The notes under the pieces: model-generated
What the model was told of the DNA's origin: nothing
Seen by the model: only the letters and a program-made list of their open reading frames with translations
The model's database searches: none
Translations under genes and position numbers: made by a program
Shown here: positions 22,319 to 22,431 of the stretch, piece by piece
Layout: the number at the start of each line of letters is the position of its first letter
Position numbering within the stretch: position 1 is the first letter of the stretch
IMG/VR virus record: IMGVR_UViG_2703718822_000004
Strand: one strand, 5' to 3'
Length of the DNA: 25,062 bases
DNA from: a virus
Lineage: Duplodnaviria > Heunggongvirae > Uroviricota > Caudoviricetes

Positions 22319-22348
22319 TTGCGCAAGGTGATTACTCTAAGGTATTAT
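22319..22348 (+). promoter_or_regulatory. Candidate sigma70 promoter TTGCGC-N18-TATTAT on the plus strand
   Basis: -35 TTGCGC (22319-22324), 18-nt spacer, -10 TATTAT (22343-22348); lies ~60 nt upstream of the plus-strand terminator at 22405-22431. Confidence 0.3.
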
Positions 22349-22404
22349 TAGGGTGCTGAATAAATTACTTCACGTTTTGTTATTTATTCCTTGCTTCCTT
22401 GCCA

Positions 22405-22431
22405 ACCGCTCTTCCCAGGAGCGGTTTTTTT
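22405..22431 (+). terminator. Plus-strand intrinsic terminator
   Basis: ACCGCTC-TTCCCAG-GAGCGGT hairpin followed by seven T. Confidence 0.5.

Follow-up and report, generated by a model that had tools for sequence, protein, structure and literature searches.

The interval at 22319-22431 in the stretch of DNA analysed here (the window, 25,062 nucleotides) can be assigned to the EcOnc08/EcOnc21/EcOnc42 family of Hfq-type small RNA (sRNA) genes, a kind already described rather than a new one. From its sequence and its position, the locus appears to form the antisense half of a convergent sRNA dyad, and this antisense gene probably encodes an Hfq-dependent, trans-acting base-pairing sRNA of that family. 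Within the family, the window element reads as a previously unremarked mosaic allele in which the pairing seed is duplicated. For the homologues, Hfq binding, expression and a list of targets have been established; from these, we infer the window allele's expression, 5' end and targets.

The window comes from a lambdoid prophage and represents its late region, whose operon is encoded on the minus strand. The features relevant to the locus are the following.

19116-19649, minus strand: lysozyme gene of the late operon.
19654-19869, minus strand: P21-type holin gene of the late operon.
20242-22206, minus strand: SASA/DUF1737/DUF6645 esterase gene (nanS-like), 654 aa, by Pfam; the candidate sRNA runs antisense across its 5' leader.
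22200-22228, plus strand: candidate upstream promoter of a long isoform, ATGCCA-N17-GATAAT, scoring 9/12 in the consensus scan, with a start expected near 22235.
22235-22431, plus strand: probable long isoform of about 185-200 nt, its extent drawn from the homologues.
22319-22324, plus strand: -35-like hexamer TTGCGC, the same in 124/124 related loci.
22343-22348, plus strand: -10-like hexamer TATTAT, after an 18-nt spacer behind TTGCGC.
22355-22431, plus strand: predicted short sRNA of about 77 nt (5' hairpin, single-stranded seed, terminator), from the fold, with the start placed by analogy with AsxR.
22387-22403, plus strand: seed tract, an 8-nt tandem duplication (TTCCTTGC at 22387-22394 and TTCCTTGC at 22395-22402) followed by C.
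22389-22403, plus strand: C/U-rich tract CCTTGCTTCCTTGCC, from the sequence.
22404-22431, plus strand: intrinsic terminator with a 10-bp stem and a 3-nt loop, from the terminator scan and the fold.
22432-22621, minus strand: STnc100-type sRNA (of the EcOnc27/EcOnc05/PasD kind), the dyad partner, Rfam RF02076, 141.3 bits, E = 1.5e-31.
22463-22442, minus strand: terminator of this first STnc100-type sRNA, from the terminator scan, adjoining the terminator of the candidate.
22685-22881, minus strand: second STnc100-type copy, in tandem, Rfam RF02076, 120.8 bits.

The genes for the nanS-like esterase, the holin and the lysozyme all lie downstream of the sRNA locus on the late strand, and a locus with 99.6 % identity is annotated in RefSeq as 'SASA family carbohydrate esterase'. 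Upstream in the late direction lie a gene of the AraC family and a fragment of a DNA methylase. The arrangement agrees with the original prediction of an RNA antisense to the late transcript entering nanS, as a plus-strand RNA would lie opposite the late-operon leader. The bidirectional terminator pair that had been proposed is also present, its minus-strand half being the convergent terminator at 22463-22442, and the region between promoter and terminator is, as expected, devoid of any open reading frame with a plausible start. A 48-aa plus-strand ORF at 22205-22351 was rejected as spurious, having no Pfam match and overlapping the nanS start in antisense. A tRNA scan of the window returned no tRNA.

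The predicted RNA has a compact and stable fold. A 79-nt version (22355-22433) reaches -20.6 kcal/mol (z = -4.95), and none of 200 shuffled sequences folds as well, so that the strong plus-strand terminator with seven T claimed from the sequence is present and better than chance. More specifically, the plus-strand hairpin AACCGCTC-TTCCCAG-GAGCGGTT occupies 22404-22426 and is followed by the seven T at 22425-22431, the first two of which pair in the terminator stem. Directly 5' of this hairpin, the 8-nt tandem duplication leaves the seed present twice, as CCUUGC at 22389-22394 and as CCUUGCC at 22397-22403; both copies are predicted to be unpaired.

Tree et al. (2014, PMC4104026) described convergent sRNA dyads bounded on one side by the moron slot downstream of PR' and on the other by a conserved phage ORF. 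They are found in prophages Sp3, 4, 5, 9, 10, 11, 15 and 17 of EHEC O157:H7 Sakai, and their antisense members include the anti-sRNAs AsxR, AgvB and EcOnc03 (PMC4104026). The order seen in the window, with an STnc100-type sRNA, the candidate and a nanS-like esterase, matches the layout of Sakai Sp4, Sakai Sp15 and EPEC PP6. In these three prophages, the slot holds a body (TATTGCGCAGAGTGATTACTGTCGGATATTAT-TCGCCAGCTGAAATATTACTTCACGTTTTGTTGTTTATTCCTTGCC-GCCCGCGTCTCCCTGCGCGGGC-T7) that is clearly homologous to that of the window.

This slot corresponds to RNAs detected by Hfq-CRAC. EcOnc08 (Sp4, 1179938-1180010) was a peak in 5/5 datasets, and EcOnc21 (Sp4, 1180016-1180101) and EcOnc42 (Sp15, 2924036-2924118) were likewise detected (PMC4104026 Table S2). 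The genome-version offset at 1.18 Mb, checked by means of EcOnc05 and the EcOnc08/21/42 probe positions, was 0. On the Sp4 locus (L005), the EcOnc08 peak covers 2939-3011, from one base past TATTAT into the T-run, and is the equivalent of the RNA predicted here, while the EcOnc21/42 peaks cover the A-R-N-rich region just upstream of it. Later papers list EcOnc42 (= EcOnc21, EcOnc08) under 'Northern probing; Hfq-CRAC' and describe stx1AB as flanked by StxS and EcOnc42 (PMC7873438; PMC7547250). Furthermore, the copy in EPEC E2348/69, designated 'E2348C_1409.E2348C_1408.IGR' (NC_011601 1444797-1444978, ~182 nt), was flagged as an EcOnc08/21/42 homologue and as a new sRNA predicted from RIL-seq (PMC8550237 Table S6). 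This PP6 copy is identical in sequence to the Sakai EcOnc08/21/42 locus.

To place the window among its relatives, IMG/VR was scanned with an exact pattern for the nanS 5' end, which gave 120 loci; together with the reference loci, 124 were examined. All 124 carry TTGCGC, exactly 18 nt and TAnnAT. Class A comprises 31 loci, with the -10 hexamer TAAAAT in 31/31 and a body of the AsxR/AgvB/EcOnc03 type containing a conserved GTATCTCATGC..TTGCCCGAACCCACTCGGGC module. Class B, which includes the window, comprises 93 loci with 30 distinct sequences and has TATTAT in every one of the 93. In an alignment of the 30 distinct class B alleles, TTGCGCA, GTGATTACT, TATTAT, the CTTGC core and the T-run are the same throughout, with CUUGC(C) standing directly 5' of the terminator in each allele. 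Variation in this class is found at 6 of the 18 spacer positions and over most of the 5' body. Representatives of the class B allele types fold with a largely unpaired seed and a terminator hairpin. The terminator stems of the two classes are of at least four different kinds, and a plus-strand run of T6-T10 comes after every one, which indicates that plus-strand termination at this site is conserved rather than one particular sequence. In one genome from each of 185,579 species, a search with the promoter block of class B and another with the RNA body both found 0 matches; the family is confined to the accessory genome of E. coli and Shigella.

The closest characterized relative is the EcOnc08/21/42 allele itself (B1), whose expression, binding to Hfq and targets have been established; the window allele is known by sequence. 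The two share the slot, the orientation, the TTGCGCA..GTGATTACT..TATTAT block and CCUUGCC directly 5' of the terminator. The 5' 40 nt of the window RNA are identical to B1 at 37/40 positions, and the whole RNA is 77 % identical. In contrast, the terminator stem is GCCCGCG/CGCGGGC in B1 and AACCGCUC/GAGCGGUU in the window, which also differs from B1 by the 8-nt seed duplication, by an upstream leader of the Stx1-phage type and by the base 3' of the seed (A instead of G). Owing to the different stem and the different base 3' of the seed, target affinity may differ between the two alleles.

The second relative is the Stx1-phage allele located between stx1B and nanS (SH2026Stx1, AU5Stx1, POCJ13 and others), which was compared by sequence. 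It is identical to the window allele in leader, promoter block and terminator, and the 3' 37 nt of the window RNA align to it with 35/38 identities. Its 5' body, however, is a different one (CGUUAAUUAAUUGUUCAUAUUG...), with a 15-nt length difference and a single seed CUUCUUGCC. The window allele can thus be read as a mosaic of a B1-type 5' half and a 3' half of the Stx1-phage type, with the duplication at the junction.

AsxR (RF02703), AgvB (RF02702) and EcOnc03 have in common with the window the slot, the orientation, TTGCGC-N18-TAnnAT, the STnc100-type partner and the junction TTTTTTACATGTAAAAAGG. In Sakai Sp5, AsxR is preceded by a nanS-type start region like that of the window, stands behind cagTTGCGCa-N18-TAAAAT and is followed by the TTTTTTACATGTAAAAAGG junction and the STnc100-like EcOnc27. 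These three RNAs are sponges of FnrS and GcvB, 51-60 nt in length, whereas RIL-seq shows the class B homologue behaving like an sRNA that targets mRNAs. They consist of a conserved ~42-nt 3' region, GUAUCUCAUGC..UUGCCCGAACCCACUCGGGC with a U tail, and a variable 5' end of 14-18 nt. The window lacks this GUAUCUCAUGC..UUGCCCGAACCCACUCGGGC 3' module and is 54 % identical to AsxR; the Rfam models of AgvB and AsxR gave no match at E <= 10 when searched against 22150-22500. Rfam searches at the gathering threshold and at E <= 10 returned nothing credible for the plus strand. The best matches (RsaOG, rli32 and OmrA-B, at E 0.1-1.4) are attributable to the generic terminator.

Other prophage-encoded sRNAs were considered as identities of the candidate. 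STnc100 (RF02076), EcOnc27 and PasD belong to the same dyad as the candidate and are Hfq-binding and prophage-borne, but they are transcribed from the late strand, measure ~170-250 nt and adopt a different fold; they represent the neighbour of the candidate and not its family. An assignment of the candidate to STnc100 was accordingly rejected, both RF02076 matches being on the minus strand and outside 22319-22431. Identity with PasA, PasC or PasD was also rejected, as PMC8550237 Table S6 places these RNAs at other loci, with PasA corresponding to EcOnc51/52 and PasD to EcOnc13. With up to 3 mismatches allowed, neither the PasA nor the PasD probe sequence matched anywhere in the window. A 2026 preprint links PasA, PasC and PasD to the esterase gene.

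The promoter was originally described as a near-consensus sigma70 promoter. Its hexamers and their spacing are present where they were placed, but 'near-consensus' overstates the match: TTGCGC-N18-TATTAT agrees with the consensus at 3/6 positions of the -35 and 5/6 of the -10, 8/12 in total, and the 18-nt spacer is non-optimal. A consensus scan of 4 kb at a threshold of 9/12 did not report it, and found 4 sites where 5.4 were expected from shuffled sequences. As sites of 9/12 are no commoner than in shuffles, the promoter does not rise above chance when judged from a single sequence, and its support comes entirely from the comparison with related loci. In class B, the hexamers may owe their conservation to something other than promoter function, the -10 overlapping an RNase E-type motif and the -35 falling within a late-strand hairpin in some alleles. 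As a reason for the invariance of the -35 hexamer, this hairpin was dropped. The hairpin is strong in the AsxR allele alone (-18.3 kcal/mol); the window (-9.2 kcal/mol, z = -1.2) and Sp4 do no better than shuffles, and the invariance is therefore not explained by it. The candidate upstream promoter ATGCCA-N17-GATAAT overlaps the nanS start codon in antisense, and its conservation is uninformative because of this overlap with the ribosome-binding site and start codon of nanS.

The length given in the original prediction, ~75 nt, is unproven. In EHEC, a Northern blot for EcOnc08/21/42 detected an RNA of ~271 nt (PMC4104026), and RNA-seq coverage in EPEC gave ~182 nt for the homologue, spanning 1444978-1444797 (PMC8550237), with a start that aligns to ~22247 of the window. 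A single Northern probe has been used for the family, AATAATATCCGACAGTAATCACTCTGCGCAATAGC; it was made as the reverse complement of GCTATTGCGCAGAGTGATTACTGTCGGATATTATT and covers exactly the stretch from the -35 to the -10. A short form starting downstream of this region would consequently have been invisible to the blot. The ~271-nt band seen with a probe on the promoter, together with the ~182-nt EPEC RNA, indicates that in the homologues the 'promoter' is itself transcribed inside a longer isoform.

These lengths raise the possibility, which we take seriously while considering it short of probable, that a long antisense transcript of ~180-270 nt from near or inside the nanS 5' end is the sole primary RNA. 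TTGCGC-N18-TATTAT would then be internal sequence and no promoter, and any species of ~80 nt would be released by RNase E, cutting at GU|AUU inside the '-10', as for StxS and PasA. Besides the two homologue lengths, the second Hfq peak (EcOnc21/42) on the upstream A-R-N-rich region fits such a transcript. A scan for the RN|WUU motif located GUAUU, an RNase E-type site, at 22342-22346, overlapping the -10, and StxS is cut at GU|AUU within the same pentamer (PMC7547250). TATTAT contains the gap that separates the EcOnc21 peak from the EcOnc08 peak, and the mature 84-nt PasA has been reported as processed from a longer transcript. Against it, AsxR, AgvB and EcOnc03, with the same -35 and the same 18-nt spacing ahead of TAAAAT, have TAP-dependent 5' ends 6 nt past the -10. 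For AsxR, TAP-dependent RLM-RACE identified the 5' end as a primary one (PMC4104026), and in Sakai Sp5 we find it 6 nt past TAAAAT. The hexamers are, moreover, invariant in 124 loci while 6/18 class B spacer positions vary, and long and short forms can coexist.

A primary transcript of ~77 nt and a processed long transcript are, in our assessment, roughly equally likely, and they are not mutually exclusive. The AsxR-type geometry, the invariant hexamers and the 5' edge of the EcOnc08 peak favour, as yet unproven, a short form that is itself the primary transcript. Processing is possible in view of the GUAUU at the -10, the PasA precedent and the position of the EcOnc21/EcOnc08 gap in TATTAT.

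Whatever its 5' end, the 3' portion of the RNA carries the elements by which the homologue appears to act. In the EPEC RIL-seq data, the homologue occupies the RNA2 position in every case, and its 3' end falls within the T-run (PMC8550237). Its chimeras are most numerous with the cfa 5'UTR (767), the dppA 5'UTR (197) and pcm (118), with fewer for perA, tir, espC, emrA and a LEE gene (PMC8550237). With CDS or 5'UTR making up more than 67 % of its partners, it was assigned to the sRNAs (PMC8550237), and its targets share the motif GGCAAGG/GGCAGGG (PMC8550237 Table S7). GGCAAGG is the exact complement of the CCUUGCC seed, in keeping with the proposed use of the C/U-rich tract for pairing. The RNA2 role and the GGCAAGG motif make the homologue most likely a conventional Hfq-dependent trans-acting sRNA, and the window allele may be taken as one by homology. 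Duplex energies against ten RIL-seq target sites offer weak additional evidence: 21 of 500 shuffles reach the value of the window allele and 41 of 500 that of B1, modestly better than shuffles, and they add little beyond the presence of the seed.

On the reading as a trans-acting sRNA of the EcOnc08/21/42 family, the locus would be transcribed on the plus strand against the late operon, and transcription would stop at the intrinsic terminator at 22404-22431, back to back with that of the late-strand STnc100-type sRNA. The RNA may be produced by two routes. It could be a primary transcript of ~77 nt from TTGCGC-N18-TATTAT, a promoter of AsxR-like architecture, or it could begin as a ~180-270-nt transcript from near the nanS start codon that is trimmed, for example at the GU|AUU inside the '-10'. 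The active part would be a 3' module composed of a small 5' hairpin, the single-stranded C/U seed, and a hairpin with a poly-U tail. The terminator hairpin and its poly-U tail would serve as the Hfq-binding element, and the CCUUGCC seed, doubled in the window allele, would pair with GGCAAGG-type sites such as those in the cfa and dppA 5'UTRs, pcm and tir.

An unlikely alternative is that the RNA serves chiefly as a cis-antisense regulator of the late transcript into nanS and the lysis genes, through interference, RNase III or titration under antitermination, with trans targets being secondary. By its position, the RNA is perfectly complementary to the nanS leader, which has a conserved hairpin on the late strand, facing the long isoform, and in at least 8 Sakai prophages the dyad separates the late promoter from the lysis genes (PMC7873438). 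Against this reading, the short form stops short of the nanS ribosome-binding site, and the nearest end of the long form remains ~29-41 nt upstream of the nanS ATG. AsxR and AgvB, which are unrelated bodies in the same slot, act in trans, and trans partners are abundant in RIL-seq.

It is very unlikely that the RNA is an anti-sRNA sponge in the manner of AsxR and AgvB, its C/U tract mimicking or capturing a core-genome sRNA rather than targeting mRNAs. The slot and promoter architecture are those of AsxR and AgvB (sponges of FnrS and GcvB), and the RIL-seq partners include dppA, a classic target of GcvB. The missing 42-nt 3' region, the Rfam result and the low identity to AsxR described above nevertheless set the window apart from these RNAs; the listed RIL-seq partners are mRNAs, and the classification of the EPEC homologue by its CDS and 5'UTR partners points the same way. 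That there is no dedicated RNA at all, the terminator merely insulating the moron/STnc100 region from stray nanS antisense transcription behind fortuitous hexamers, is hardly credible: back-to-back terminators are common insulators and an 8/12 promoter is not above chance in a single sequence, but the homologues give Hfq-CRAC, Northern and RIL-seq signals, the seed motif next to the terminator is conserved in all alleles, and the hexamers are invariant in 124 loci.

The seed-duplicated mosaic by itself raises no new question; it is one more variant to catalogue and a natural 'seed dosage' variant for dissecting the family. The modest upside lies in the idea of cassette-like seed shuffling at a fixed prophage slot. 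More specifically, the antisense slot of the dyad could be a recombination cassette, with promoter and position fixed and the 5' body, seed and terminator shuffled among prophages to yield new sRNA specificities, the window allele with its tandem seeds being a fresh product. We regard this proposal as speculative and rather doubtful. If it were true, the two seeds might bind two targets at once or a single longer GCAAGGAAGCAAGG site, or might pair with GGCAAGG targets with a higher affinity than that of the common allele, and cfa, dppA and LEE genes such as tir might be rewired in the non-O157 STEC strains that carry the allele.

Dyad sRNAs adjoin Shiga-toxin genes and other morons, and two of their alleles, AsxR and AgvB, are known for reprogramming core-genome regulation in EHEC. 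Among 5,426 complete E. coli genomes, the body of the window allele is present at 99 % identity or more in 76. Strains with this allele include E. coli RM10042 and 2014C-4135. Class B alleles as such are much more widespread, the B1 body occurring in 991 of these genomes with up to 6 copies in each. Both bodies are unannotated in the complete E. coli genomes, although the EPEC copy is linked by RIL-seq to cfa, dppA and virulence genes.

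The leader of the late transcript entering nanS, a nanS-like esterase gene on the minus strand, folds into a strong hairpin (-24.9 kcal/mol, z = -3.1) when its minus strand is considered, and the plus strand of the same interval reaches -14.4 kcal/mol (z = -1.4). This hairpin and the other elements surrounding the plus-strand sRNA candidate are as follows.

22248-22295, minus strand: late-transcript hairpin within the 5' leader of nanS, GCGGGCUG-N32-CAGCCCGU
L003 (Sakai Sp5 sequence) 6690-6735, late strand: hairpin of the AsxR allele, AAGGCUGCGC-AACU-GCGCGGCCUU UUUCGU
22432-22621, minus strand: STnc100-type sRNA gene with its own terminator (Rfam, 141 bits)
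22685-22881, minus strand: STnc100-type sRNA gene with its own terminator (Rfam, 121 bits)
About 22660-22672, plus strand: CACAACA, between both STnc100 copies
22205-22351, plus strand: ATG-initiated ORF of 48 aa, antisense to the nanS start and extending into the candidate's promoter
22342-22346, plus strand: GUAUU, a match to the RNase E-type motif RN|WUU, overlapping the -10 TATTAT

Within the leader hairpin the alleles differ by substitutions, in plus-strand notation ACGGGCTG in the window versus ACAGGCTG in Stx1 phages. Because these substitutions keep pairing only as G.U, and only on the minus strand, selection on the hairpin appears to act through the late mRNA. On the antisense RNA, the EcOnc21/42 Hfq peak faces this hairpin. 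For re-mapping of the EcOnc peaks, the offset between the published Sakai sRNA coordinates (NC_002695.1) and NC_002695.2 needs to be corrected, being 0 at 1.18 Mb and about +137 at both 1.27 Mb and 2.92 Mb.

A further late-strand hairpin is found in the allele carrying the anti-sRNA AsxR in Sakai Sp5, where the -35 TTGCGC is embedded in a strong fold (-18.3 kcal/mol, z = -3.2) followed by U5. This structure could be an additional late-strand terminator immediately ahead of nanS. Its counterparts in the window (22295-22340) and in Sp4 fold no better than shuffles.

The window carries two STnc100-type sRNA genes in tandem on the minus strand. In Sakai Sp4, Sp5, and Sp15, the reference loci that were read over their whole length, a single such element lies between the moron or toxin gene and the dyad junction. 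The CACAACA between the two copies corresponds to the consensus sequence targeted by the R1 seed of GcvB, a target that the anti-sRNA AgvB mimics. A promoter-like site matching at 9/12 positions (22602-22629) lies upstream of it; neither a plus-strand terminator after the motif nor an Rfam AgvB match was detected.

No Pfam family matches the 48-aa ORF, which is probably spurious. Cleavage of StxS, which is cut from a longer precursor, has been reported at a pentamer identical to the GUAUU at the -10 (PMC7547250), and this motif bears on the choice between a primary and a processed origin of the short RNA.
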